Below are positions 3,525 through 32,000 of a stretch of DNA of 32,000 nt, piece by piece; position 1 is the first letter of the stretch; each line of letters starts with the position of its first letter. This stretch comes from Halomicronema hongdechloris C2206 (GTDB lineage: Bacteria; Cyanobacteriota; Cyanobacteriia; Phormidesmidales; Phormidesmidaceae), in assembly GCF_002075285.3 (NCBI RefSeq), contig NZ_CP021983.2, positions 2,490,001-2,522,000 of the forward strand, in the 5' to 3' direction. The position numbers and the translations under genes were made by a program. The notes below the pieces were generated by a model. It saw nothing but the letters and a program-made list of their open reading frames with translations, made no database searches and had not been told where the DNA came from.

Positions 3525-3590
3525 GGCAGTTCTCGTTAGCCAGCCCGTTAGGCCGCCCGATTCGTTGTCTCCGCTACACTGTTCATCCTA

Positions 3591-3630
3591 TCAGCGTCTC
3601 CTGAAGCTTATCAGCGTCTCCTGAAGCTTA
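3591..3630. repeat. Perfect 20-bp tandem duplication (tcagcgtctcctgaagctta x2) in an intergenic region
   Basis: Read directly: 3591-3610 is identical to 3611-3630. Confidence 0.95.
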
Positions 3631-14342: not shown

Positions 14343-14380
14343 TCGGAATATTAGGTGATGATCGGAATATTAGGTGATGA
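14343..14380. repeat. Perfect 19-bp tandem duplication (tcggaatattaggtgatga x2) overlapping the annotated KAP start
   Basis: Read directly: 14343-14361 is identical to 14362-14380. Confidence 0.95.
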
Positions 14381-16437
14381 GAGGAGTTTATAGGCCTTCT
14401 AGCAAAATATTTGAATTATTTCACGAGTTTTCGAGTATGTTAGCAAACATATTAAGCCATAAATTTAGAGGACCTATCACAATGGAAGACGGTCATGCGA
14501 AGCCCAAAATGTCAGCTAATAGTCACGTAAGAGAATATCTAAATTATTACTGTAGACTACCATGTGAGCCTAGATTTGCCGTTTTATTAAAGGGAGAATG
14601 GGGCTCTGGGAAAACATGGTTCATAAATAGATATGAGGAGATCCTAAAAGAAAGAAACCAAAAATGCCTGTATATCAGTCTTTATGGAATCAGCAATGTT
14701 GCCGAAATAGATGATAAATTTTTCCAGTTGCTGTATCCCATAAGGTCATCAAAAGGAATGGCAATTACTGGGATTATTGTTAAGGGATTATTGAAAGGGG
14801 CATTAAAAATCGATTTAAATAGTGATGGTAAGGATGATGCTACTTGGAATATTCAAATTCCAGAAATCAATTTTCCTGAGCGCTTAAAGGATATCAATCA
14901 AAGTATTTTGATATTTGATGACCTAGAACGTTGCAGTATAGAGCTCGGAAATTTACTAGGATATATAAACTATTTTGTAGAGCATCAAGGCTTGAAGGTA
15001 ATTCTTATTGCAAATGAAGATGAGCTAAGCAAAAACGAAAGCTACAAAGCCATAAAAGAAAAATTGATTGGCAAGACATTTAGTATATCTCCTGATTTTA
15101 GAGATGCGATGGAAGATTTTGTATCTCAAGTCCATAATGAAGACGCTAAAAATTTCTTACTTAAAAACTCCGAAAAAATAAGAGATCTATACAACAGCAA
15201 AAATTATCAAAATCTAAGAATCCTGAATCAGATTATTTTGGAATTTGAAAGGATTTTTGAAAAATTACCAGGCGAGGTAAAGAGCCGATCGGAGATCCTA
15301 GAAAATATATTAGAAAACTTTGTAAATTTTTCCACCGAAATTAGTTGTGGTTCGATACATCCCAAAGATTTGAATAAGCTATGGGAAGAGTATAATCATA
15401 TGCTAATAGGTGATAAAAGTTCTTCCAATCCAAATGGAAAAGAAAATGAGGAGATTTTTTACCGAAGAATTTTTGGGAGACATGACTTTTTTAATAGTCC
15501 ATTCCCAAATCTATATTGGTGGGAGGTACTCTTTGATAAGGGAGTTATAGACGAACAGGAATTAAAGCAATCAATACTAAGTAGCAAGTATTTTCAAGAT
15601 GAAAATACGCCTGACTGGACAAAATTGTGGCATTACTCAGAACTTGACGATGACAAATTCAATGATTTGATCAAGAAAGTTGAGGTTGACTATGGCAACA
15701 GAATATTCACCGATATTGGCATCATAAAACATATAGTTGGACTTTTCCTAAAGTTCTCTGATGCCGGAGTTTATCCTAGATCCAAACAGGATATCCTAGA
15801 AGATTCTAAAAGGTATATTGACGATCTTAGGAGTAAAAATAAATTAGAGCCTTTCCCTAAATCTTCAACTTTACCTGAAACGATTGGTCATATCATAGGC
15901 GGTTACCAAAGCCTTGAATTTATGGGGAAAGAATTTGAGGAATTCGAGGAATTTTGCAATCATCTCAATGAAATTAGGCAGTTGGTTACGATTGATAAAA
16001 TCCGTGAGGACGCTCTATGCCTGCTTGATATGATGAAAAATGACGTGAATAAGCTGTATAGGATTCTTTGCTTCGACAGTTCTCCTGCTCAAGATGAGTC
16101 AGAGCCAAGGTATCATGAGATCCCGATATTAAACTATATACCTTCTGCTGATTTTATGGCAAGCATACTTACCATGAAACCTGAGGAGCAACGGAATGTC
16201 TTCTCAATAATTTCTGAAAGATATAAGTATCAGAACATTAATAAAAAATTGATTGAAGAATTGGAATGGCTAAAATCAGTCCAGACTTTATTGTTAGAGG
16301 AATCTTCCTGTAGGCAAGGTAAGCTTAGTGAATTTCGTTTAAAAGAATTCAACACGTATTATCTGAAAGAAACAATTGCTAGGCTTGCCACTGGGAAAGA
16401 AACTTCTGGAGAAGAGAAACTAGGCGAGGTCCAATAG
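14374..16437 (+). CDS. KAP-family P-loop NTPase
   Basis: Walker A GEWGSGKT (14593-16), Walker B-like ILIFDDLERC, a long alpha-helical C-terminal region, and a very AT-rich sequence. The start is uncertain: the ATG at 14482 has AGAGGA nine nt upstream and may be the real start. Confidence 0.8.
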   Translation: MMRGVYRPSSKIFELFHEFSSMLANILSHKFRGPITMEDGHAKPKMSANSHVREYLNYYCRLPCEPRFAVLLKGEWGSGKTWFINRYEEILKERNQKCLYISLYGISNVAEIDDKFFQLLYPIRSSKGMAITGIIVKGLLKGALKIDLNSDGKDDATWNIQIPEINFPERLKDINQSILIFDDLERCSIELGNLLGYINYFVEHQGLKVILIANEDELSKNESYKAIKEKLIGKTFSISPDFRDAMEDFVSQVHNEDAKNFLLKNSEKIRDLYNSKNYQNLRILNQIILEFERIFEKLPGEVKSRSEILENILENFVNFSTEISCGSIHPKDLNKLWEEYNHMLIGDKSSSNPNGKENEEIFYRRIFGRHDFFNSPFPNLYWWEVLFDKGVIDEQELKQSILSSKYFQDENTPDWTKLWHYSELDDDKFNDLIKKVEVDYGNRIFTDIGIIKHIVGLFLKFSDAGVYPRSKQDILEDSKRYIDDLRSKNKLEPFPKSSTLPETIGHIIGGYQSLEFMGKEFEEFEEFCNHLNEIRQLVTIDKIREDALCLLDMMKNDVNKLYRILCFDSSPAQDESEPRYHEIPILNYIPSADFMASILTMKPEEQRNVFSIISERYKYQNINKKLIEELEWLKSVQTLLLEESSCRQGKLSEFRLKEFNTYYLKETIARLATGKETSGEEKLGEVQ

Positions 16438-16606: not shown

Positions 16607-19600
16607 ATGGTTGAGGAGACACCGCTCCTACAAATTCATCTGTTGGGCGATTTTTGCATCTTCGATCAAAGCGGTACCGTCATTGACATCCGGTTGCGAT
16701 CGCAAGAGCTGCTCGCCTATCTGATTCTGCACCGCCATACCCCTCAGCCCCGGCGACGGGTTGCGGCAGTCCTCTGGCCCGATGACCTAGAGAGTCAGGC
16801 CCGTACTCATCTTAGGAAAGAGCTCCATTACTTGCGACGAACCTTCCCCATCATTGAGCAGATCGTCGTGATCACCCCTCGGACCCTCCACTGGCATCCT
16901 CAAGGGGCCTGCCAGGTGGACCTGGAAATCTTTGAAACCACTTTAGCCACCGCAGAGGACTCCAAAGGCCATGGGGCTTGCCAAAAGCTGGAGTCTGCCC
17001 TCGGAGTGTATCGAGATGACCTATGGCCAGACTGTGAGGCCGACTGGCTGTATCCAGAGCGAGAACGGCTGAGACAGCGCCATGTTCGCGCCCTGGCCCA
17101 GACGACTCGACGGCTGCAAGAGCTGGGGGAAACGGCGAAAGCGATTACCCTGGGCCGACAGTGGTTACAGGCTGCCCCCCTAGACGAAGGCGGCTATCAA
17201 ACGCTGATGGCGCTCTATGGAGAGATGGACGATCGCGCCACGGCCCTACAGCTCTACCACCAATGCATGACCGCGTTGCAAACCGAACTGGGGGTATCAC
17301 CGAGCGCGACGACGGCTGAGCTCTATCAGCGGTTGCTGGTGGCTGCAGAGGTCAGCGACGATTCCCTGCCTTCGTCAGCTCTGCTCGCTGGAGAATCCAT
17401 TCCCGTGCCCGCCCCCCTGCCCCTAGCGCCCCCCACTGCCACTAAAGCGTTGGTCGGCCGCGACGAGCTGTTCCCCGCCTTAGAACAATGGCTGTTACCC
17501 ACTGCCATAAGGTCTGCCCCCCTCTTGCTCCTAACGGGAGAACCAGGCATTGGCAAGACCCGTTTGCTGGAGGCGCTGGCTGAGAGTGCAAGCCACCATC
17601 ATTTTCAGCCGTGCTGGGGTCGGGCCTTTGCTGCCGAGCAGCTGCGTTCCTACGGCGTCTGGATCGATCTGCTGCGGACAGTCTCTGACACTGAGCTTTT
17701 TTCGAGTCTCAGAGAGGTGTCAACCGACCTGCGCGATGCCCCGTTGGAGCGACTGCCTAACCGTGGACAGTTATTGGACGCCATTGTTCAGGGCCTAAGG
17801 GCCGTGACCCAGTCGGAGCAAGCCTTACTGCTGCTCTTTGACGATATTCACTGGTTAGATGAAGCCTCCACCACGCTGTTACACTATGTGTTTCGCTCCC
17901 TTGGCCACGGACCATTGCGCATCGCCTGTGCGGCTCGTGGTCAGGAGTTACAGGACAATCCAGCCATATCCAGCCTGCTAAAGTCCCTGCGACGGGCAAA
18001 TCGGTTACAGGAAGTGGCGGTGCCGCCGCTTTCCCCCGAGGCAGTTTGGACACTGGTGCAACCATTGCCCAATCCCGATCCGGACCATCCCCTCAACCCC
18101 CAGCAGATCTATGCGGACAGCGGCGGGAATCCGCTCTTTGCCCTGGAAGCGGCCCGTGCCCTGACTCAAGCCACCAGTACCCTGCCGGATCTGATTGACG
18201 ATCGCCTGCAACGATTAGATCAAGCCGCTCGGGATCTATTGCCCTGGGCCGCCGCCTTGGGTCGCCGATTTGACCCAGACACCTTGGCATCGGCGGCGGG
18301 CTATCTCCCCATGCAGTTTCTCACCGCGATCGAGCAGCTAGAAGCGCAGCAGATCGTTTGCCCAGTGCCCGCAAGTCAGGCCGATGGCGACGGCTACTAC
18401 GACTTTGCCCACGATTTGGTGCGCCAGGTGGCCTACGACCGTCTATCGCAGCCGCGACGGCGACTCATCCACCGACAGCTCGCCAAAATCCTCAATGCTC
18501 AAACCGTAGATGATGACCTGGCGAGCCAGGTGGCTTACCATGCCGAGCTTGCCGATGATCATGCCCTCGCCGCCCAGGCTGCTGCCGCCGCCGCCGCCCG
18601 TAGTTTGCGCTTATTTGCCTACAAAGACGTGATTCAACTCGTGGCTCAGGGCCTACATCACTGTCAATTTCTGTCCAGGGGTGAGCGCCTCTGCCTATCG
18701 GCCCAGCTCCTGCGAACTCGGGTACTGGCGGGCATGGCCACCGAAGAAAGCGCTATCGTCGAATCTCAGCTACAGCAGCTCACCGCCGAGTTGGAAGGCC
18801 TATCGATGCCTGAAGCCGAGCTCATCGTTCAGGAGGCGTTAAACTTTTTGCACTACGATCAGGGCAACCTCGCAACCGTGCATCAGCAGAGCCTCAGGGC
18901 CTTGGATGCCTTACCCCCCAGCCCTCAACTCCAGGCCCAGAGCCTGGCGGCCAATGGCTGCTGCTTAGCCGAAATTGAGCGGGACATGGATCGGGCCGAA
19001 GCCGTCCTGCTGGAAGCCCAGGCCATCGCAGAACGATTGGGGTTGAAGCTGATTGATGTTGCCACCGGGTTAGGCTGTATCGAGCGGTATCGAGGCCACT
19101 ACGGACAGGCCCGCACCTACTTGCAGCAGGCCTTACAGCTTGCCCAGAATCAGCGGCATTTTGTGGCCCAGGGATATGCCTTGAGCCAATTGGCCATGAC
19201 CGGCTGGGACTGGCATCAACCAGACATCGTCGCTGTTCAGGCATTAGTGCAGTTGGCCAAGCGGCTCCCCCAGGGCAGTGAGGGCAGTTTTGCCGCCGCC
19301 TTGATGGCGTTGAGTGCCTATGCCGATGATCCGGATGCGACCGAGGCGTTGGATCTAAAGCTGCATCAGTTAAATCAGCTCGACGCCCAGCGCAAGCTAG
19401 TCTTTATTGCCAGCCACGCCTGTGAAATCGCCCTGGCCCATCATCAGCAAGCAGCCGCCCGACGCTATGGGACCATGGCCCAGCAAGCGGCTCAGCAGGT
19501 GGGGCATCCTAACGATCTGGTAATGACAGGTGCCCTGCAGGTGCTAACTGCCAATCAAGCCGCTGAGCAACAGGCTTCGTGGCAGCAGCTTCAGCACAAC

Positions 19601-19741
19601 CCCGATATCAATGATTGTCGCTGCAGCGCTCGGGCTCGGTCATTATATGAGCAGGCACAACGGGTAATGCAGCCGTCCATGGCCAAGCGGCATACGCTTC
19701 AAGATAGCTGCCGACGGAGTGCGGTGAACCAAACGATGTGA
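16607..19741 (+). CDS. SARP/BTAD-family transcriptional regulator with AAA/STAND ATPase and C-terminal TPR-like region (AfsR-like)
   Basis: The N-terminal part is LLGDFCIFDQSGTVIDIRLRSQELLAYLIL...RRRVAAVLWPD. The BTAD-like segment is YQTLMALYGEMDDRATALQLYHQCMTALQTELGVSPS. Walker A is GEPGIGKT (17537-60) and Walker B is LLLFDDIHWLD. Confidence 0.8.
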   Translation: MVEETPLLQIHLLGDFCIFDQSGTVIDIRLRSQELLAYLILHRHTPQPRRRVAAVLWPDDLESQARTHLRKELHYLRRTFPIIEQIVVITPRTLHWHPQGACQVDLEIFETTLATAEDSKGHGACQKLESALGVYRDDLWPDCEADWLYPERERLRQRHVRALAQTTRRLQELGETAKAITLGRQWLQAAPLDEGGYQTLMALYGEMDDRATALQLYHQCMTALQTELGVSPSATTAELYQRLLVAAEVSDDSLPSSALLAGESIPVPAPLPLAPPTATKALVGRDELFPALEQWLLPTAIRSAPLLLLTGEPGIGKTRLLEALAESASHHHFQPCWGRAFAAEQLRSYGVWIDLLRTVSDTELFSSLREVSTDLRDAPLERLPNRGQLLDAIVQGLRAVTQSEQALLLLFDDIHWLDEASTTLLHYVFRSLGHGPLRIACAARGQELQDNPAISSLLKSLRRANRLQEVAVPPLSPEAVWTLVQPLPNPDPDHPLNPQQIYADSGGNPLFALEAARALTQATSTLPDLIDDRLQRLDQAARDLLPWAAALGRRFDPDTLASAAGYLPMQFLTAIEQLEAQQIVCPVPASQADGDGYYDFAHDLVRQVAYDRLSQPRRRLIHRQLAKILNAQTVDDDLASQVAYHAELADDHALAAQAAAAAAARSLRLFAYKDVIQLVAQGLHHCQFLSRGERLCLSAQLLRTRVLAGMATEESAIVESQLQQLTAELEGLSMPEAELIVQEALNFLHYDQGNLATVHQQSLRALDALPPSPQLQAQSLAANGCCLAEIERDMDRAEAVLLEAQAIAERLGLKLIDVATGLGCIERYRGHYGQARTYLQQALQLAQNQRHFVAQGYALSQLAMTGWDWHQPDIVAVQALVQLAKRLPQGSEGSFAAALMALSAYADDPDATEALDLKLHQLNQLDAQRKLVFIASHACEIALAHHQQAAARRYGTMAQQAAQQVGHPNDLVMTGALQVLTANQAAEQQASWQQLQHNPDINDCRCSARARSLYEQAQRVMQPSMAKRHTLQDSCRRSAVNQTM

Positions 19742-22983: not shown

Positions 22984-24273
22984 CCCTTAGTGGCGCAGAG
23001 AAGTGCTGAAAGTGCTGCTGTATAAGGACTCTCAAATAGGACAAGAGGGTATTTCATGAGAAGCTGAAGTTCCCCAACTACCGCTAACCTCATGGAAACG
23101 CCTATCGTCAACTGGAAGACCAATTACGTCAATGGGTCGAGCCCAAAGACCAACGCCATCTGCAGGGCTTCACTGAAATGCTGGCGGCCATCTTGCAATC
23201 TGGCCAGGCCTGCTTGGGGAAATGGATTCCTTACTTGGATCACCGCGGGTGTAGCGCCCGGGCTCACTTGGAACGTGTAAGCTATTTTCTCCGCAATGAG
23301 CAGATCACTGCGGAACGGGTCTACCGGCCCTTGTTACGCCATGTGCTGCCCGCGTTTGCTGGGGAAGCTGTCCTGTTGACCTTGGATACGAGTCTGCTGT
23401 GGAATCACTGGTGCTTGATAGAGGTGTGCTTGGCTTGGGGCGGGCGGTCGCTCACGCTGACCCAACAGGTAATTGAACATCGCAGTGCCACCATCCGTTT
23501 TGAACAATACCACGGGGTGCTGGAGTGCGCCCGTCGAGCCTTACCGCCAGGGAGTCAGGTGACGCTTTTGGCCGACCGAGGCTTTGAACATGGAGACTTG
23601 ATCCGTTGGCTTAATCGCAATCACTGGAACTGGTCGATTCGCGTCAAGTCAGACTTGCTGGTCACCCTGGCCCAGGGGCGAACTCAACCCGTCGAGGCCC
23701 TCTGTCCACCGCCGAATCAGGCGTATCTCTTCCCCAACGTGCAGGTGCTTGAAGATATCAAGGCGCATCTGGCGACGGCCAACGTGCCGGACGCTCAAGA
23801 CACCTGGGCGGTGTTGTCGAACCAACCTCCCTCGCTACAGACCTTCGCGCTCTATGGCCAGCGGTTCGGTGGGATTGAGCCCCATTTTAAGGATTACAAG
23901 TCAGCAGCATTTGACCTCTTGGAGACGGGACTGCGGGAAGCCGAGATGCTGACCCGTTTAGTCATGCTGTTGGACGCCGCCTCGCTCATTGCCCTGATAC
24001 TTGGCCTGATGCTTGTCCACGCAAAACAGCGGGCTCGGATTGACTGGCATGGGGAGCGGGGGTTGAGTTTTCTGCAACTTGGTCTGCGTGAGTTGGCTCG
24101 GCTGTGCTACCAGCGATTACCTCTGCCCAAACTTCGGGCTTTGACCAAAGGCCATCCATCTCCGGCCTGTGCCTCACGCTGTAAACGTGAGGCCTTAGAT
24201 TGTCGCGTTGAGTTCTCTAAGGTCGTTGTGTTCTCATCTTGAGACTGTTCTGAGTTTTCTGCACCACTAAGGG
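22984..24273 (+). mobile_element. Complete IS4/IS701-like insertion sequence (~1.29 kb) with terminal inverted repeats
   Basis: IRL is CCCTTAGTGGCGCAGAGAA (22984-23002). IRR, as the reverse complement of 24255-24273, is CCCTTAGTGGTGCAGAAAA (17/19 identical). The element encloses a single DDE transposase gene. I could not identify a convincing target-site duplication. Confidence 0.8.
23178..24242 (+). CDS. DDE transposase (IS4/IS701-like); the 5' end is apparently frameshifted
   Basis: Motifs are LLTLDTS, LLADRGFEHGDLIRWL and YGQRFGGIEPHFKDYK (Y-R-E-K signature). The same frame stays open upstream to 23088 and encodes AYRQLEDQLRQWVEPKDQRHLQGFTE, a typical N-terminus for this family. The only nearby ATG (23092) is one base out of frame. 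Confidence 0.8.
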   Translation: MLAAILQSGQACLGKWIPYLDHRGCSARAHLERVSYFLRNEQITAERVYRPLLRHVLPAFAGEAVLLTLDTSLLWNHWCLIEVCLAWGGRSLTLTQQVIEHRSATIRFEQYHGVLECARRALPPGSQVTLLADRGFEHGDLIRWLNRNHWNWSIRVKSDLLVTLAQGRTQPVEALCPPPNQAYLFPNVQVLEDIKAHLATANVPDAQDTWAVLSNQPPSLQTFALYGQRFGGIEPHFKDYKSAAFDLLETGLREAEMLTRLVMLLDAASLIALILGLMLVHAKQRARIDWHGERGLSFLQLGLRELARLCYQRLPLPKLRALTKGHPSPACASRCKREALDCRVEFSKVVVFSS

Positions 24274-24577
24274 TTTTGACCTCAAGCAGACCCAGCCTAA
24301 CCTAAAATGGCCACACCGTTACTGTCCAGTGGTTCATCGCTTGTCATTGCCCGGATTCTGGGTTGCTGTTGAGCGCCACCCTGAAGCTGTCGTTGAGACG
24401 ACGGTTTAGATAAGGCAGCACCCGTTTCGATCGCATTACTGCTGAGCGGCATTTTGTGCGATCGGGCAGTGGTTGGCAGCAAAGACTTTATATAAAATCT
24501 TCGAGTGATTTATGAGAATAATGGAGCTCTGAACGCTTGTCAAAAGACATAGGCTATTAGTATCTCTTGACATAGAG

Positions 24578-24593
24578 TGTGATCTGAATCACA
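24578..24593. promoter_or_regulatory. Perfect CRP-family palindrome TGTGA-N6-TCACA
   Basis: TGTGATCTGAATCACA was read directly, and TTGACA lies just upstream at 24567-24572. The site sits in the ~1-kb AT-rich non-coding stretch upstream of the JAB gene. Confidence 0.4.
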
Positions 24594-25334
24594 TATTCAT
24601 CGAGTAAAAGCAATGAATGTGGATATTTAAAGGTTTTTTGAACAAAAGGCTGAGCTAGTGATCTCAAATGTTACCCTCTAGGGTAATAGCGCATCTTGAT
24701 TCTTTGGTAAATAATTGAGGCGTGCAAGAGTGAACCAGCAAGCCAACTGACATCGAACTGACTGGTTAGCATCTATCAGTATTTCAGCATCTACCAAAAC
24801 TATTCGGGCTCTTTGGACTAAACTATGCTGACTGCATTACTAAAAACCTCGAATCCCTTATGTAGCAATACTTGTAGGTCTTAGAAACTCAAACAGAGTC
24901 ACGAATGCCGCAAAATCCTGCGCCGTAAGGATTCTAGCGATTTTCAGGGCTGTATTGCATACCCTAGCCGGAAGACCCACTATTCGTGAAGCAAAAGCCA
25001 GGTTCCTTAGATGACTTTGAAGTGGAAACTTGAATAGTAAACCTCCGAGTTTCAACTTGTGGGCATTACCTTAGTATGCTGAATACGGTTAATGGCTTTT
25101 TCAGGCTCAGCATAAAAATTTTTGGCGATATGATTGCGAAGATTTCGCGGAAAGAGAATTTTGGCGAATAAATGCCTCACAAAGACTATCTTCCCTAATA
25201 AATCTTGCTTAGTAATACGTACAAGAATTTTGGAATCTCGAACAGTATGTGTAGTTCTGAAGAAGCACATAATTAGTGATAAAATTACGCAATCCAATGG
25301 GTGTACGGTATCTTTTTTGATTAGGTACGATTTT

Positions 25335-26282
25335 ATGGCTAGCTATAGCAAGCAGGGATCTAAATTTAAAGCCCTAGTCTATGAAGGTGAATTACAACGT
25401 ATTTCTGGTTGGGTTGAGGAATATCCGAATTTAGAAACGGGTGGAGATCTATTTGGATTCTGGACACATTCTGGATTCCCAGTTGTTCAATTTGTATTGG
25501 GTCCTGGCTCAAAAAGTAGACATAACCCAACCAGTTTTTACCAAGATAAAGATTACTTGGTTGAAAGTGGTAGTCTTCTCAGGAGTAAGCATGGCTTACA
25601 ACATATTGGAGAGTGGCATTCTCATCATCAACTTGGATTGGCTCAACCTAGTCAAGGAGATGAAAATACAGTTTTTAGAGCATTAGAAAAATACAAATTT
25701 CCCAAGTTTTTACTTTTCATTGCGAATTTAAGACCTAACTCAGGAAGTCGTTGCCAAAGAAGCAAATGGACGGTCAATGTAGGGAGCTTTTTATTCACCC
25801 GATCTATACCTAAGTATCAGGTTGGCCAATGGGTAGTTTTACCAGAAAATAGTCCAATTCGGTCAACTTTACATCAGAGCTGGCCTCAAAGTTCATCCTT
25901 TGAAAAAACTTGCCTCTCAAATAGTTGGAAGGTTGACCAAACCTCACTGGAAGCTGAAATCCTGGAGCCAACTCAACCAATTGAAATCGCTGAATATCTG
26001 TGGTACTCGAAACCAGAGGGACAAAATTTGCTGAAGGAAATTGATTCCGACCTAAAACAAGTCTTTAAAGACTGCCAAATGTTTCGAACAGTCACAGGAA
26101 GTATTTACTTTACTTTCAAATATGGTCTGGATTACTGGCGAGTTAACTTACCTAATAACTTTCCTGATTCATCACCAACATTACAAGTTAACGAGGGGGA
26201 ACCAATATCGATTGAAGAGTATTCTAGCCAAACAAACTTAATAAATGATTTGAAAATATACTTAAAAATTCGAATGAAATAA
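25335..26282 (+). CDS. JAB/MPN (JAMM) metalloprotease with C-terminal E2/UEV/RWD-like extension
   Basis: The preferred start is the ATG at 25335 (MASYSKQG...), because the upstream part of track ORF 25134 is low-complexity. The JAMM motif is ETGGDLFGFW ... GEWHSHHQLGLAQPSQGD (25617-25661). The C-terminal SIYFTFKYGLDYWRVNLPNNFPDSSPTLQV parallels the flap region of the next gene. Confidence 0.8.
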   Translation: MASYSKQGSKFKALVYEGELQRISGWVEEYPNLETGGDLFGFWTHSGFPVVQFVLGPGSKSRHNPTSFYQDKDYLVESGSLLRSKHGLQHIGEWHSHHQLGLAQPSQGDENTVFRALEKYKFPKFLLFIANLRPNSGSRCQRSKWTVNVGSFLFTRSIPKYQVGQWVVLPENSPIRSTLHQSWPQSSSFEKTCLSNSWKVDQTSLEAEILEPTQPIEIAEYLWYSKPEGQNLLKEIDSDLKQVFKDCQMFRTVTGSIYFTFKYGLDYWRVNLPNNFPDSSPTLQVNEGEPISIEEYSSQTNLINDLKIYLKIRMK

Positions 26283-26297
26283 AAGGTTGATAAAGTT

Positions 26298-26762
26298 ATG
26301 AATTGGAGTAAGATCCAGCAAAAACGTTTACTGATAGAGAAGGAAATTCTCAAGAAGTACTTCCCTGCATTTAAGTGGGTTAATCCTACTGATTCCAGTA
26401 ATACAAGAATAGAAGGCAACGTATGCACTAATTCTATGAAACTGTACACTCTCAGAGTGTATATACCTTCAGATTTTCCTAATTCACGTCCTGATATGGT
26501 TGTAACCTTGCCATATCCTCTTGAAGGATGTTCAGGAAATGACTTGAAAGATTATGGTGCGAGTTCAAGTATGCACACGCTGGATCCAAGAGATGGCTAT
26601 GTTCAAATTTGTCACTATAAAGATTGGACAGACAACCTAACCGTTTACTTGGTTGTCTTAAAAGGAAGAATTTGGCTTGAAGCATATGAAGCACACAAAC
26701 GTACTGGACAACCTTTGGACCACTTCTTACCTCATATGCTTGGTGGTGCAGAAAACTCCTGA
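26298..26762 (+). CDS. Stand-alone prokaryotic E2-like (UBC-fold) protein
   Basis: The N-terminal helix is QQKRLLIEKEILKKYFP. The beta-meander plus flap is KLYTLRVYIPSDFPNSRPDMVV. An HPN-like MHTL has His93 (26574-76), and the candidate catalytic Cys105 lies in VQICHYKDW (26610-12). The gene starts 15 nt after the JAB stop. Confidence 0.7.
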   Translation: MNWSKIQQKRLLIEKEILKKYFPAFKWVNPTDSSNTRIEGNVCTNSMKLYTLRVYIPSDFPNSRPDMVVTLPYPLEGCSGNDLKDYGASSSMHTLDPRDGYVQICHYKDWTDNLTVYLVVLKGRIWLEAYEAHKRTGQPLDHFLPHMLGGAENS

Positions 26763-26790
26763 AACCCTTATGGATAAAGGATTCTCATTA

Positions 26791-26906
26791 AGACCGTCAT
26801 TTTTGGCTTTCTCAAAAAATTGGACGAGGGCAGTAGGTTTCAGCCGATGTTTTGGCTGTTCAAGCCATCCACTGTGAGACTCAAAAAAGTTTTCTGCACC
26901 ACTGAG
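26791..26906 (+). mobile_element. Truncated 3' end, including the right inverted repeat, of a second diverged copy of the IS at 22984-24273
   Basis: gttttctgcaccactgag (26889-26906) matches gttttctgcaccactaag (24254-24271) at 17/18 positions. TGAGACT, including the transposase stop codon, sits at the same offset in both copies (26875-81 vs 24240-46). The upstream frame ...AVGFSRCFGCSS..* loosely parallels ...RVEFSKVVVFSS*. Confidence 0.6.
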
Positions 26907-27031
26907 CCTCATATGTAATGAACAAATATATACTTGCAATGGAAAATTGAAACCATAGCATATCAGTTTTTGAACAAATCTATCCTGCCTCTACGTAATT
27001 ATTTCAGTGAACATTAAGGAGGACAAATCCA

Positions 27032-27223
27032 ATGACAGATTCTCAAAATGTGCAGGAACATCTAGAGATTATGACTGAAGAAGGGGCTGCGCCACCCAAC
27101 CAAGAACTCGTTTTCGACCCAACAACAGGCCAGCTAGTTGTAAAGAGCATAAGTGATCCTAAGCCTAATCCTGATGCTGTGACTGCGACCCAAATTGCTG
27201 AAGATGGTTTCTTCCAGGAGTAG
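27032..27223 (+). CDS. Small (63 aa) acidic, proline-rich protein of unknown function located 5 nt upstream of the E1-like gene
   Basis: A strong SD, AAGGAGG (27016-22), lies 9 nt upstream of the ATG. The stop is 5 nt before the E1-like ATG. The sequence is MTDSQNVQEHLEIMTEEGAAPPNQELVFDPTTGQLVVKSISDPKPNPDAVTATQIAEDGFFQE. I recognise no family. Confidence 0.6.
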   Translation: MTDSQNVQEHLEIMTEEGAAPPNQELVFDPTTGQLVVKSISDPKPNPDAVTATQIAEDGFFQE

Positions 27224-27228
27224 TAGTT

Positions 27229-28530
27229 ATGAATTCATATCTTGTCTACATGCACCAGGAGCAAGTCCAAGCGATCTACCAAAACTTTATTGCTTCTGGA
27301 ATAAACACAATTCGTGGAATTGCGTTTGAGTTTGATGACGGTGATGTTTTTCATATTTATACATCAGAACCCAAAACTCAGATCTCTGGTTATCCCTGTG
27401 CTTCCCTCATTCAATTTCTAGATCGATTACCTACCAACGAAGCAGGTCTAGCGATGGCTAAACAGCTTCGTAACACAATGCAAAATAATGGTGTCAATTC
27501 TTCTAGACATATATTGATTATTCTATTCTCAATAGAGGATGGTCAGTTAAAGCATCATGTTTTCGCGAGTAGAGCTGAAGGCGAATTCCAAGAAGGAGTT
27601 ATGAAATTTCTTCCTGGGAGATCCGAGCTTTATTCTCGCAGTAAAGGAATCTTGGAAACTTCAATCTTAGAGAACTGCAAAGTTGGGATTGTTGGCCTGG
27701 GTAGTGGTGGTTCTAGTATTGCAGTAGAACTGGCTAAAGCAGGAATTGGTAATTTTGTGTTGATTGACTATGATCGACTGGAATTAGCCAACATTGCTAG
27801 GCATGTTTGTGGGACAGGTGATCTTGGTCGTTATAAAACTAAGGCGGTCAAAGATGCACTATATGGCAAGAATCCTCACATTCAGGTTGACAGCGCCGAG
27901 CTCGATATTAACGAAAATTTAGAGCAAACCAAAATACTGCTTAAAGACTGCAATTTAATTATTGCAGCTACTGACAACGATCGCAGTCGTTTCAATTTAA
28001 ATAGTATTTCCTTGGAATATAGAATTCCTACTATTTTTGGTAGAGCATTAACTCGTGCTATTGGAGGTGATGTTCTAAGAGTCCGCCCTCATCAAGGACC
28101 TTGTTTAAGATGTATTTTTACCAAAGATTTTCTAGCAACCCGTAAACAGGAAATATCCACGTCTACCCAGGCTAGGAAAGATACACCAGCCTATGTCTCA
28201 GATGAAGAGGTTAACGCAACTGTTCAAGTTGGATTGTCTTCTGATATTGTGCCCATCTCAAACATGGTTGTGAAACTGGCATTAGTAGAGCTGTCTAAAG
28301 GTCGAGCCAGTGGCATTGCTTCCCTAGAAGAAGATTTGATTGCGAACTTTTACATTTGGGCTAATCGGCGTGAGCAAACCTATGCTGAATGGCCAAAGAT
28401 GGAATATGGTTCAAGAACACCCTCTATCCTGCGGTGGTACGGTGCAAAGTGGGAGCGCAACGCAACTTGCCCCGCCTGTAACGAAGACCATGAACTACTG
28501 GATGAGGAAGACAATATTTTTGCTAGTTAA
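27229..28530 (+). CDS. ThiF/MoeB/E1-like adenylating enzyme with an unassigned ~145-aa N-terminal domain
   Basis: The Rossmann motif is KVGIVGLGSGGSSIAVELAKAGIGNFVLIDYDRLELANIARH (GxGxxG at 27694-27711), followed by ATDNDRSR. Two CxxC pairs, GPCLRC (28102-13) and CPAC (28468-79), resemble the Zn site of MoeB/ThiF/MccB. Confidence 0.8.
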   Translation: MNSYLVYMHQEQVQAIYQNFIASGINTIRGIAFEFDDGDVFHIYTSEPKTQISGYPCASLIQFLDRLPTNEAGLAMAKQLRNTMQNNGVNSSRHILIILFSIEDGQLKHHVFASRAEGEFQEGVMKFLPGRSELYSRSKGILETSILENCKVGIVGLGSGGSSIAVELAKAGIGNFVLIDYDRLELANIARHVCGTGDLGRYKTKAVKDALYGKNPHIQVDSAELDINENLEQTKILLKDCNLIIAATDNDRSRFNLNSISLEYRIPTIFGRALTRAIGGDVLRVRPHQGPCLRCIFTKDFLATRKQEISTSTQARKDTPAYVSDEEVNATVQVGLSSDIVPISNMVVKLALVELSKGRASGIASLEEDLIANFYIWANRREQTYAEWPKMEYGSRTPSILRWYGAKWERNATCPACNEDHELLDEEDNIFAS

Positions 28531-28683
28531 GAAGATAAACACTATTTTCTCGGCTCTTCTGGATATCAGGTGATAAGCGTGGCAAGGGTTTCAGCCTTGT
28601 TAATGCTATTTTTTGTATCCAATTGACCATTTTCAACCATAAACCCAAAAGAGCCATTTTCTCGATGTAAAACACTTAAAAAC

Positions 28684-31600
28684 ATGAATGACTTTGAAGC
28701 AGCTCAGTTACTACAGCAAGGTATTCAGCATTTCCGGGTTGGTCAATTGGATCTAGCCGCCGATTCCTTTCGTGAAGCCTTAAGGATATCCAAAGTTCTT
28801 GGAAACCGCGCTGTTGAGGGAGTAGCTCTCACTGTTCTGGGCAATGTCTACCTTAACCAAAACAAATACCAGCAAGCGATTGAAGCTCAGGAACAAGCCC
28901 TAGCGCTCTCCAAAGAGACTGGTAACTATGCCGGACAGGGAGCAGCCCTAGGTGGATTAGGATTGGCTTACCTTAAGCAAGGTCAAACTCAACGAGGTGC
29001 TGAGCATCTTGAAGACGCATTACCCATCTTCAAACAAATTGGCGATCGCGCGGGAGAATGTCAGGTGTTGAGTGGGTTGGGAAATGCCTATACCCAATCA
29101 GAAGAATATGCAACCGCAGTGAAGTACCTTCAGCAAGCACTAACAGCTGCTAGGGAAATCGGCAATCCTGTCGGGGAGGCCACAGCTTTGGGTGGCTTAG
29201 GAGAGGTTTACCTTAAGCAAGGTCAATATCAAAAAGCCATTGAGTCTTTGAAGCCGGTGTTACCCATCTTCCAGGAAATGGGCAATCGCCCATGGCAAGG
29301 AGAAACCCATATTAACCTGGCAAAGGCCTACGACAATTTGCAGCAGTACACAGAGGCAATTACTCATTATGAACAGGCCTTCAACATTTTTCAAGATTTG
29401 GGCGATCGCAATAAAGTCGGCAATCTACTGCTTAATCTGGGCATTGATCAGGGGCAACTGGGTCAATATTCTGAGTCTGCCTCCTCCTATCAAAGAGCTT
29501 TATCAACTTTCCAGGATGACGGTGATCAAGCGGGAGAAGGAAAGGCTCTGCTGAATTTGGGCATTACCTGCTCTTATCTGGCGCAATATTCAGAAGGAAT
29601 CCGTTTCCTGAGTCAAGCCCTTAGCATTTTCCAGCATCTGGGTGATCTGAGGAGTCAAGGAATCGTTTTAGAGCGTCTGAGCTATACCCACATGGGATCA
29701 GGCCAGTTCACAGAAGCCATCAGCTTTTTCCAGCAAGGTTTAGATATTGTCCGAATGAGTTGCGATCGCCTGACAGAGGGCACAATCCTAAGCAATTTAG
29801 GCTATGCATTGACGCAAACAGGGGAATATCAACAAGCTCTCGAACATCTCAACCAAGCTTTAAGTATCGCTCATGAACTCGAAAACTCTATTCTCAAAGG
29901 TCAAGCTTTATCATTTTTAGGAAATTTATATCTTGATCAGGGCAAATATCAAGAAGCCATTGAAACTCAGAGATATGCTTTATCAATTCTAAGGAAGACT
30001 AACAACGCTTTGGGACAAGCCGCAGCTTTGGGTTGCATAGGACTTGCCCACTTGCAACAAAGTCAATATCAAGAAGGCATTAAGCATCTTGAGGAGGCGT
30101 TGCCAATCTTCAAACAAACTAGATACCGATTTGGAGAATGCCAAACTTTAAATGGTTTAGGTAATGCCTATACTCAGTTACAAGACTATCCAAGCGCCAT
30201 TGATTATTTCCAGCAAGCACTGAAAATTGCGAAGGAAATTGGTAATTGTGTAGGAGAAGCAACAGCATTAAGTGGATTAGGTGATGCTTATCTACAACAT
30301 GGTCAATATCAAGAAGCGATCGATGCTTTGCAGTCAATAATACCGATTTTGCCAGAAATTGGCGATCGCCAGTTGGAGCAGACCATATATATTAATTTGG
30401 GCAAAGTCTATACTGAGCTTAAACAATTTAAGGCAGCAATCCAATCCTTTGAGAAAAGCTTAAAAATCACTCGAGAACTTGGTGCTCGGATAGAAGAACT
30501 GCTTGCCTTAAGTAGCTTAAGCACTCTAAATTTTGAAGCTAAGAGATTTGAGAGCACAATAAAATATTCTAGGCAGATTTTAACTCTTTTAGACAAGAAG
30601 AGCGATACTGAATTAAACCTCGAAAATGAAGTGAAACTCAACATTTTGTCAGAGGCAAAATACAATATCGGCACAGCTCATCTATATAAGCAAAAAGGCA
30701 TAAGAACTGACAATTTAGAGTTAGCCATTCGCTATCTTAAAGAAGCCTTACAAGGATATTCTAGAGACAACCTTTCCTCTGAGTGGGCAAAGGCTCATAA
30801 TAATCTTTCCATTGCATATTTGGATAGAATTCGAGGTGGTAAAGCAGAAAATATAGAGAATTCAATTAAGCACTCAAAAAACACCTTAGAAGTTTATACA
30901 ATAGAGGAGTACCCTGAAGAATGGGCTAGAACTCAACTTAATTTAGGTCATGCTTACTTGGCAAGAATACTTGGTGAGAAAGTAGCTAATCTTCAAGAAT
31001 CAATCGGCTTCTGTCAGCGAGCTTTATCTGTTTTTACTCAGAAGGAATCTCCTGAGTATTGGGCGAAATCACAAAGTAACTTGGGAGCTGCCTATGCTAC
31101 TCTTGCTAAGCAAAGTAGTCTTAAGGTGGGTTTCCTAGATTATGTGAAGCAGGGTAAACCTAAAGTCACCTCAGAAAACTTTTCCAATTTTAGTACTAGC
31201 AACTATGAAGAAGTAAAGCATAAATTTTTAGAAAAAGCAATTGAAAGCTTTACGCTTGCTTTGCAATTTCTAGATGAGACAAACTCTCCCTTTGATTGGG
31301 CACAGGTTCAGATGAATTTAGGAGCTGCTTTCTTAGATAAGTCTGAAATCATAGAATTGAAAGAGAAAGATAGATTGATAGATCTAGCCATTAACTCTTT
31401 TGACTCTGCCCTAAGGGTCTTTACTCCTATTAAGACTCCTGAGAAGTGGGCAGAAGTGAACAATCACATGGCAGTTGCATATATCAAGAGACTGAAAAGT
31501 GAAACAGGAGATAAGGCTGAGATTTTTAGTAATTCAGTTGTTCGTTTCCAAGATACGCTACAAATTTATACGCGCGAGGCTTTTCCTCAAAAATATGCAG

Positions 31601-32000
31601 AGGCCCAACACAATCTTGGACGAGCCTATAAGTATGCTGAGAACTACAGTGCGGCATACGATGCATTCTATGAAGTCATTGAAACCTTAGACTATCTGCG
31701 TAGTGAGATAAGTCCCAAATCAGGCATACAAGAAGACAAGCAGAAGCTGACGGAAGCATGGAACCATGTTTACCAGGAGATGGTGCAGCTCTGTTTGAAG
31801 CTTGATAAGCCTATAGAGGCAATTGAATATGTTGAACGGAGTAAAACCAAGAGTCTTGTTGAGCTTCTTACAAATAAAGAAAATTACTACGAACATGAAA
31901 CATCTCTAAGTCGAATCCGTGATGTTGGAAGGATTTCCTTTGCTGATATTCAAGACCTGATTGACGATCAAACTGCGATCATCGAATGGTATATCGCAGA
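28684..32000 (+). CDS. Giant TPR-repeat protein, 3'-partial (over 1105 codons with no stop before the window end); probable TPR-CHAT protease
   Basis: This ORF is not in the supplied track. I translated it by hand from ATG 28684 (MNDFEAAQLLQQGIQHF...) to the last base and found no stop. It contains about 14 canonical 40-aa TPR units, then W-containing repeats (P.EWA..Q.NLG.AY), then EYVERSKTKSLVELL...DQTAIIEWYIA. That order matches the usual lead-in to a CHAT domain in cyanobacterial proteins. The catalytic part would lie beyond the window. Confidence 0.75.
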   Translation, partial: MNDFEAAQLLQQGIQHFRVGQLDLAADSFREALRISKVLGNRAVEGVALTVLGNVYLNQNKYQQAIEAQEQALALSKETGNYAGQGAALGGLGLAYLKQGQTQRGAEHLEDALPIFKQIGDRAGECQVLSGLGNAYTQSEEYATAVKYLQQALTAAREIGNPVGEATALGGLGEVYLKQGQYQKAIESLKPVLPIFQEMGNRPWQGETHINLAKAYDNLQQYTEAITHYEQAFNIFQDLGDRNKVGNLLLNLGIDQGQLGQYSESASSYQRALSTFQDDGDQAGEGKALLNLGITCSYLAQYSEGIRFLSQALSIFQHLGDLRSQGIVLERLSYTHMGSGQFTEAISFFQQGLDIVRMSCDRLTEGTILSNLGYALTQTGEYQQALEHLNQALSIAHELENSILKGQALSFLGNLYLDQGKYQEAIETQRYALSILRKTNNALGQAAALGCIGLAHLQQSQYQEGIKHLEEALPIFKQTRYRFGECQTLNGLGNAYTQLQDYPSAIDYFQQALKIAKEIGNCVGEATALSGLGDAYLQHGQYQEAIDALQSIIPILPEIGDRQLEQTIYINLGKVYTELKQFKAAIQSFEKSLKITRELGARIEELLALSSLSTLNFEAKRFESTIKYSRQILTLLDKKSDTELNLENEVKLNILSEAKYNIGTAHLYKQKGIRTDNLELAIRYLKEALQGYSRDNLSSEWAKAHNNLSIAYLDRIRGGKAENIENSIKHSKNTLEVYTIEEYPEEWARTQLNLGHAYLARILGEKVANLQESIGFCQRALSVFTQKESPEYWAKSQSNLGAAYATLAKQSSLKVGFLDYVKQGKPKVTSENFSNFSTSNYEEVKHKFLEKAIESFTLALQFLDETNSPFDWAQVQMNLGAAFLDKSEIIELKEKDRLIDLAINSFDSALRVFTPIKTPEKWAEVNNHMAVAYIKRLKSETGDKAEIFSNSVVRFQDTLQIYTREAFPQKYAEAQHNLGRAYKYAENYSAAYDAFYEVIETLDYLRSEISPKSGIQEDKQKLTEAWNHVYQEMVQLCLKLDKPIEAIEYVERSKTKSLVELLTNKENYYEHETSLSRIRDVGRISFADIQDLIDDQTAIIEWYIA
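28825..30415 (+). repeat. Intragenic segmental duplication: two ~510-bp four-TPR blocks (28825-29335 and 29905-30415), offset by 1080 bp
   Basis: The first block reads ALTVLGNVYLNQNKYQQAIEAQEQALALSKETGN...LSGLGNAYTQSEEYATAVKYLQQALTAAREIGNPVGEATALGGLGEVYLKQGQYQKAIESL. The second reads ALSFLGNLYLDQGKYQEAIETQRYALSILRKTNN...LNGLGNAYTQLQDYPSAIDYFQQALKIAKEIGNCVGEATALSGLGDAYLQHGQYQEAIDAL. Confidence 0.8.

Follow-up and report, generated by a model that had tools for sequence, protein, structure and literature searches.

The window considered here is a stretch of 32,000 nucleotides from Halomicronema hongdechloris C2206 (contig NZ_CP021983.2, positions 2,490,001 to 2,522,000), whose right end carries the 5' part, 3.3 kb long and intact, of a member of the cyanobacterial TPR-CHAT gene family, named after an array of tetratricopeptide repeats (TPR) and a CHAT protease domain. 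The gene very likely encodes a protease of clan CD (caspase/separase-like) and probably stands at the head of a three-gene operon. The part present in the window encodes a superhelical array of 16 + 6 repeats, followed by a conserved helix and a first strand that in all relatives are continued by a CHAT domain bearing a His/Cys dyad.

From ATG 28684 to the last base of the window, the plus strand translates without a stop over 1105 codons. The other five frames contain 54-104 stops over the same segment (28684-32000), shuffled versions of it yield open runs of ~74 codons (139 at most), and the base composition gives a chance of ~1e-32 for a run of 1105 codons. An earlier reading, made from the sequence only, had pointed to an uninterrupted 3.3-kb open reading frame (ORF) absent from the ORF list, which shows only short or antisense ORFs in this region, and this frame is real: the sole listed ORF inside it is 88 amino acids long and antisense (30408-30674), and the long frame is missing because ORFs running off the window are not listed. 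Judging from the alignment of MNDFEAAQLLQQG with residue 1 of two full-length orthologues, P0121 and P0122, and from an in-frame stop 19 codons upstream, ATG 28684 is the true start. About 400 more codons are expected past base 32000, and by comparison with the orthologues the whole gene would almost certainly span ~4.5 kb and encode ~1500 amino acids, of which the window holds the N-terminal ~70%.

Hundreds of relatives of the fragment are found at E < 1e-30, nearly all of them cyanobacterial. P0121 (1547 amino acids) is 59% identical over 97% of the 1105-residue query and P0122 (1552 amino acids) 50% identical over 100% of it; both follow the window protein collinearly up to where it ends, and the ~400 residues that come next contain a CHAT domain (PF12770, E 4.8e-49 and 1.6e-48, respectively). 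This domain carries the motifs IVPYRGLHMLPFHALP, HFACHG (residues 1376-1381 of P0121) and LSACETG (1422-1428), with an intact His/Cys dyad that is also present in five further proteins of the TPR-CHAT modules described below. The window protein ends at the equivalent of P0121 residue ~1143, and over its last 205 residues it is still 53% identical to P0121. The Pfam match of the orthologues begins ~120 residues further on, and a Pfam search of the available 1105 residues accordingly gives no PF12770 match. It should be mentioned that these full-length relatives were recovered with all 1105 residues as query; residues 621-1105 returned only proteins of at most 849 amino acids, apparently through a length filter of ~1.75 times the query.

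The last hundred residues are equally informative. Residues 1001-1105 match 110 proteins, 59 of which have at least 330 residues beyond the match. A strict pattern finds both dyad motifs in 52 of these, and six of the other seven have a precomputed PF12770 match, which brings CHAT to 58 of 59. A CHAT-less subfamily was considered and rejected, the tails of ~175-190 amino acids being mostly partial sequences that break off inside CHAT. Relatives of the tail on plasmids bear the annotation "CHAT domain-containing protein", and a metagenome scan with the unique tail returned a single relative (36% identity). The sequence-only reading, in which the array led into a probable CHAT domain, is thus supported through the relatives, and an active CHAT domain can be expected with high confidence, by homology, past the window end.

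Within the fragment, three zones are distinguished (Table 1). In zone 1, several TPR models match with significance (Pfam TPR_12, PF13424, E 5.5e-106 over 10 stretches; TPR_1, PF00515, E 7.9e-76) and the 40-residue register is unbroken, so that the TPR array proposed earlier stands, while the count of ~14 canonical repeats rises to sixteen. Five of these units form a block (A) that recurs nine units downstream (B). The two blocks are 54% identical in amino acids, against 29-35% at all other multiples of 40 residues. In the self-comparison of 28684-32000, the offset of +1080 bp (+360 amino acids) gives a best 300-nucleotide window of 70% identity, any other offset reaching at most 56%. The offset and the paralogy had thus been correctly recognized; the blocks measure ~195 residues rather than ~170. 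Compared with P0121, block A is 69% and block B 71% identical to its counterpart, whereas A-B comparisons yield 52-57%, and between blocks A and B third codon positions are 44% identical, second positions 79%. By these figures, the duplication is old and predates the split from P0121, and the excess of identity at second over third positions indicates that both copies have been retained under selection.

Zone 2 comprises longer helical repeats anchored by a tryptophan. The five Trp-containing repeats noticed earlier are located at W701, W747, W793, W872 and W922, to which a degenerate sixth (Y971) is added; the anchors are spaced by 46-50 residues, with one gap of 79. These repeats are weakly TPR-like (TPR_12, E 1.8e-11) and the same repeat is the consensus in the CHAT-protein relatives. 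Zone 3 had been described as a linker of the kind preceding CHAT domains. A conserved tail before CHAT is indeed found, but it is not a mere linker: TAIIEWYIA aligns with TAILEWYLL of P0121, which forms strand E196-203 of the P0121 model, the first β-strand of the protease module, so that the last residues of the window already belong to this module. Upstream of it, the ERSKTKSLVELL segment is helical in the same model. When the 31 CHAT proteins retrieved through the tail are aligned, their consensus reads EAIEYVERSKTRNLVELL ... IxFxxIQxLLDxxTAIIEWYI; it always continues into the CHAT motifs, and its E, R, K, L and Y do not vary (31/31). The conserved pre-catalytic junction of TPR-CHAT proteins, from the ERSK helix to the TAIIEWY first strand, is therefore present in the window protein.

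The structural model of P0121 residues 940-1547 (predicted local distance difference test, pLDDT, 78.5; predicted template-modelling score 0.79) shows helical repeats followed by an α/β module. A Foldseek search of this model against the PDB returns the TPR-CHAT protease Csx29 of Craspase as top match (E 3e-13, probability 1.0), then separase (E 1e-10), the CHAT anti-sigma factor DdvA (E 4e-6) and SAVED-CHAT (E 1e-3). At the sequence level, the orthologue C-terminus also matches Csx29 among PDB entries (E 3e-8), with the CHG (His) and ACET (Cys) motifs aligned.

Table 1. Features of the TPR-CHAT family gene and of its surroundings in the window
Feature	Coordinates	Strand	Evidence
5' 3.3 kb of predicted TPR-CHAT protease gene, cut by window end	28684..32000	+	open frame; start common to orthologues; collinear with P0121 and P0122
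Zone 1, sixteen 40-residue TPR units (residues 5-644)	28696..30615	+	register table; Pfam TPR_12, TPR_1
Duplicated block A, five TPR units (residues 41-235)	28804..29388	+	54% amino-acid identity to block B
Duplicated block B (residues 401-595)	29884..30468	+	+1080 bp from block A
Zone 2, six longer Trp-anchored helical repeats	30778..31629	+	motif positions, 138-bp (46-residue) periodicity
ERSKTKSLVELL helix, conserved pre-protease motif (residues 1051-1062)	31834..31869	+	E, R, K, L invariant in 31 CHAT proteins
TAIIEWYIA, predicted first β-strand of separase/CHAT-type module (residues 1097-1105)	31972..31998	+	P0121 model
JAB-like peptidase	25335-26282	+	PADLOC JAB, 2e-13
154-residue protein, E2-like by position and HTL...CH motif	26298-26762	+	no family match
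Conserved 63-residue peptide	27032-27223	+	conserved in L001 and L002
ThiF/E1 protein, resembles Cap2 of CBASS	27229-28530	+	PADLOC "E1-E2", 4e-33
Terminator-like hairpin and T-run in the 153-bp gap between E1 and TPR genes	28580..28612	+	1 site against 3.2 expected in shuffles
DDE transposase	23178-24242		
KAP-family P-loop NTPase	14374-16437	+	PADLOC candidate defence family PDC-S49, E 1.5e-224, almost full length
BTAD-AAA_16-TPR protein, 1044 residues (STAND/SARP-like NTPase)	16607-19741	+	directly downstream of KAP NTPase

The genes that follow the TPR-CHAT gene in relatives are a conserved pair. Downstream of both orthologues lie a gene of 116/118 codons (58% identity between the two products) and then one of 514/483 codons (66%), while the genes upstream are unrelated to each other. 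The ~500-residue proteins make up a family in cyanobacteria, with at least 357 clusters and no Pfam match, seven members of which were sampled from Coleofasciculus, Moorena (two), Nostoc, Geitlerinema, Microcoleus and one metagenome. All seven genes are located downstream of a gene encoding a TPR-CHAT protein of 906-1519 residues, with a gene for a protein of 112-121 residues in between. Overall, the ~115- and ~500-residue proteins are encoded after the TPR-CHAT gene in nine of nine sampled loci (L009, L012-L019), with intergenic gaps of 3-27 bp or overlapping genes. A mobilizable plasmid of Pseudanabaena (NZ_AP017561.1, 125566-140714; L020/L021), in which the pair precedes four tandem CHAT genes, extends the adjacency to ten of ten related loci, those of both orthologues among them. 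The window gene is likely, from this synteny, to be the first of a three-gene operon, with the two partner genes just past the CHAT-coding part, beyond base 32000.

The small proteins share a [RK][AG]PG motif, invariant in seven of seven, and in Coleofasciculus (L013) the small gene is fused to that of a DUF2887 protein. The model of the ~500-residue protein (pLDDT 85.5) displays an α/β domain, three very long helices and a C-terminal transmembrane helix. In P0316 (L017), the N-terminal domain of this protein is joined to a second, caspase-like CHAT domain (FSGHS...NSCDG) that replaces the membrane tail. Pfam, NCBIfam and PADLOC have no model for either partner, nor does PADLOC for the CHAT part. 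No description of the three-gene module was found in the searched literature, which is not proof of novelty. To note, two loci (L009 23207-24644 and L014 9982-15978) have genes with a two-partner-secretion (TPS) domain at a distance of a few kb from the module, one of those in L009 encoding a TPS + CHAT protein of 1804 residues.

On these grounds, a mechanism can be outlined, by analogy with Csx29 and separase. The missing ~400 residues would encode an active protease, and the TPR array would serve as a binding platform or sensor that holds it inactive. The two further operon genes would encode a ~115-residue [RK]-[AG]-P-G protein and a ~500-residue protein with a cytosolic α/β domain, a long helical stalk and a C-terminal membrane anchor. 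Upon binding of a trigger, the His/Cys dyad would cleave a partner: the likeliest substrate would be the small protein, at the basic residue of the invariant motif, or else the third, ~500-residue protein. Cleavage of the partner would then activate the membrane-anchored protein. This chain, from the sensing of a trigger to the activation of a membrane protein, is put forward tentatively. It is equally speculative that the three genes may constitute an undescribed and widespread cyanobacterial system, made of a TPR-CHAT protease, a ~115-residue protein and a ~500-residue protein of CorA-like layout (in which a second CHAT domain sometimes takes the place of the anchor), where trigger-dependent proteolysis would release or activate a membrane-acting effector, as a CRISPR-independent counterpart of the Csx29/Csx30 pair acting in abortive infection or programmed cell death.

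By itself, the TPR-CHAT gene is one more copy in a very large, already annotated family and matters little; the only potentially new point is its linkage to the partner genes, located outside the window. To our knowledge, a substrate or trigger has been identified for very few CHAT proteases of bacteria (Csx29, SAVED-CHAT and HetF). A conserved operon with a candidate cleavage motif provides a testable substrate hypothesis for a large group of CHAT proteases.

Upstream of the TPR-CHAT gene, the window contains a cassette of four parts (Table 1): a JAB-like peptidase, a 154-residue E2-like protein, a 63-residue peptide and a ThiF/E1 protein that resembles Cap2 of the cyclic-oligonucleotide-based antiphage signalling systems (CBASS). 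The 154-residue protein has a conserved MHTL...ICHY motif, and its E2 identity is not confirmed, neither the single sequence nor a three-sequence profile having a match in Pfam, NCBIfam, PADLOC or the PDB. The peptide reads ...FDPTTGQLVV...AEDGFFQE. The same four parts are found in Spirulina subsalsa (L001 8287-11284), where the peptide forms an in-frame fusion with the E1 N-terminus, and in a Pseudanabaena metagenome-assembled genome (MAG; L002 971-3902), where the flanking genes encode Mfd and a transketolase; neither cassette has an adjoining CHAT gene. Among the genes beside the cassette, no CD-NTase or recognizable ubiquitin-like protein (Ubl) was seen, the minus strand at 26768-27262 (495 bp) and the L001 and L002 loci not having been exhaustively scanned. 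The cassette may represent an undescribed variant of ubiquitination-like pathways. Its E1 is at most 64% identical to relatives on genome contigs, and the nearest relatives outside cyanobacteria (31-33% identity; L004-L007) belong to Candidatus Hodarchaeota (Asgard archaea) and Paceibacterota MAGs. A megablast search of 25000-32000 against plasmids gave no near match.

The cassette and the TPR gene share a block of 37-45% GC (guanine plus cytosine) content, from ~24300 to 32000, that begins directly after the DDE transposase gene, in surroundings of 54-66% overall and 54-61% immediately to the left (17-24 kb). This GC mosaic, starting right after a transposase gene, suggests that the block is a horizontally acquired island. 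Further left, the KAP NTPase gene sits in a sharp islet of 33-39% GC within DNA of 57-66% and is followed by the gene of the STAND-type NTPase. Together with other items, these two NTPases give the right half of the window the character of a defence island. Two perfect tandem duplications are present in the window, one overlapping the start codon region of the KAP NTPase gene (14343-14380, 19 bp x 2) and one at 3589-3630 (20 bp x 2.1).

Given this arrangement, the TPR-CHAT protein could be the effector of the JAB/E2-like/63-residue/E1 cassette, the whole being a single protease system controlled by ubiquitin-like conjugation. The common strand, the gap of only 153 bp and the shared low-GC block behind the transposase speak for such a unit, as do conflict systems coupling JAB/E1/E2-Ubl/E3 sets to caspase-like effectors that are presented by Kaur et al. 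2020 (PMC7159879). This is nevertheless very unlikely, as the closest relatives of the cassette (63-64% E1 identity) are devoid of an adjoining CHAT gene and, conversely, E1, E2 and JAB genes are absent from all ten loci of the TPR-CHAT module. Moreover, MoxR, vWA, FtsH, RING E3 and EAD1, which those systems need according to the same authors, were not found among the window ORFs by a Pfam scan. At the N-terminus of the window protein, no EAD1 adaptor domain was found either, and there is no room for one since residue 5 already opens the first TPR unit and the orthologues can be aligned to the N-terminus position by position. The terminator-like hairpin between the E1 and TPR genes hints weakly at their separate transcription, being not significant alone. 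Functional coupling was judged unlikely because the adjacency is conserved on neither side, and, with the components of the Kaur et al. systems not found, the cassette is treated as an independent neighbour of the TPR gene within the same low-GC block. The comparison with Craspase raised by the sequence-only reading also calls for a distinction. Csx29 is the best structural match and the best PDB sequence match of the orthologue C-terminus, and the likeness of fold stands. The context of clustered regularly interspaced short palindromic repeats (CRISPR) does not: the 32-kb window has no CRISPR-like repeat array, and Cas7-11, other cas genes, Csx30 and Csx31 were not found among the window genes or in the related loci. 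The comparison is structural only since the window has neither array nor Cas protein. Membership in type III-E was rejected, the fragment alone having 1105 residues and the orthologues ~1550, against ~700 for a Csx29 that is accompanied by Csx30, Csx31 and RpoE. With twice the size, 12-14% identity in the fold alignment and different conserved partners, a Csx29-type protease working with Cas7-11 has a practically negligible probability.

Several observations weigh against a protease gene at the head of a three-gene operon. For this genome, the CHAT domain and the two partner genes, expected past base 32000, are extrapolated from relatives at most 59% identical. A helical hairpin of ~60 residues, present between the ERSK helix and the first strand in both orthologues, is missing from the window protein, and one group of Planktothrix relatives ends early at a shared point, ~180 residues after the ERSK motif and before CHAT, which indicates that decayed copies exist. 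Together with the location of the gene in an acquired low-GC block near a transposase, these last two points would fit a decayed or truncated copy, in which a long TPR protein has had its protease part lost or disrupted just past the window. Such decay is highly improbable, in view of 1105 intact codons, of a tail still well conserved with P0121, of the purifying selection visible in the codon positions of the old duplication, and of the CHAT domain kept in nearly all sufficiently long relatives. Other observations concern the function. The fold of the ~500-residue protein matches only CorA, and weakly (E >= 2.5e-3, template-modelling score <= 0.25); homology to CorA was rejected and these matches are taken as architectural resemblance. 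The modules at L009 2324-5968 and L019 10796-14774 stand beside the same genes (DUF1816, SpoU methylase, RNase III, STAS and CarA), which fits a stable cellular role as well as defence; the recurrence of this housekeeping set on two cyanobacterial contigs of distant relationship is a hint that some lineages have long kept the module at one chromosomal place. The same protein could then have a developmental or cell-biological role. HetF, a cyanobacterial CHAT protease, reportedly acts at the divisome, in cell division, and in heterocyst differentiation, and the absence of a PADLOC model for the module points in the same direction. This role is considered rather unlikely for the window gene, which lies in a low-GC island after a transposase and within the same 32 kb as the PDC-S49 KAP NTPase and the STAND NTPase; moreover, on the mobilizable plasmid of Pseudanabaena the pair is accompanied by four CHAT genes in tandem, and the copy number and flanks of the module vary between genomes. 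The reading as the 5' part of a TPR-CHAT protease gene heading a three-gene operon is retained as likely.

Known systems place this protein in perspective. The Ubl-coupled "FtsH ternary" systems, rare in cyanobacteria according to Kaur, Burroughs, Iyer and Aravind (2020; PMC7159879), likewise have a JAB/E1/E2-like set near a caspase-like protease; the adjacency seen in the window is not conserved, and the further parts that they require, including the double FtsH AAA+, the Ubl-E2 fusion and the EAD1 tags, were not found here. SAVED-CHAT (PDB 8TL0), from a type III-B CRISPR protease cascade, DdvA (PDB 8ROT) and HetF have the CHAT catalytic domain in common with the present protein type, and they illustrate CHAT domains as switchable proteases in bacterial signalling. 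Their contexts differ, as do their sensor parts, which instead of a TPR array are a SAVED domain in the first, a transmembrane anti-sigma architecture in the second and none in HetF. In separase (PDB 9HN0, 5FBY), as in the orthologue, helical repeats precede a protease module of two lobes that bears a His/Cys dyad. Separase is eukaryotic, cleaves cohesin and is controlled by securin and Cdk1, homologues of which are not present here, but its protease stays inactive until an inhibitor is removed, which makes it a useful model of regulation.

Csx29 of the type III-E Craspase (PDB 7Y8T, 8D9G, 8EEY) has the TPR + CHAT fold in common with the present protein type. In both cases the locus encodes a substrate, established for Csx29 and proposed for the TPR-CHAT modules. 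Csx29 has ~700 residues, docks on the complex of Cas7-11 with CRISPR RNA and cleaves Csx30 once target RNA has activated it, whereas the present protein type has ~22 repeats and about twice the length, and its loci encode the ~115-residue and the ~500-residue membrane-anchored proteins instead of Cas7-11 and a CRISPR array. Finally, the proteins named "CHAT domain-containing tetratricopeptide repeat proteins" by the NCBI Prokaryotic Genome Annotation Pipeline (PGAP; PF12770 + PF13424) have the same architecture in cyanobacteria, with an N-terminal TPR array, Trp-anchored repeats, the ERSK...EWY junction and a C-terminal CHAT domain, and nothing essential sets the window protein apart from them. 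Within this family, the window copy is devoid of the 60-residue hairpin, and is distinguished by its length (~1500 residues) and by the old five-unit duplication that it shares with P0121.

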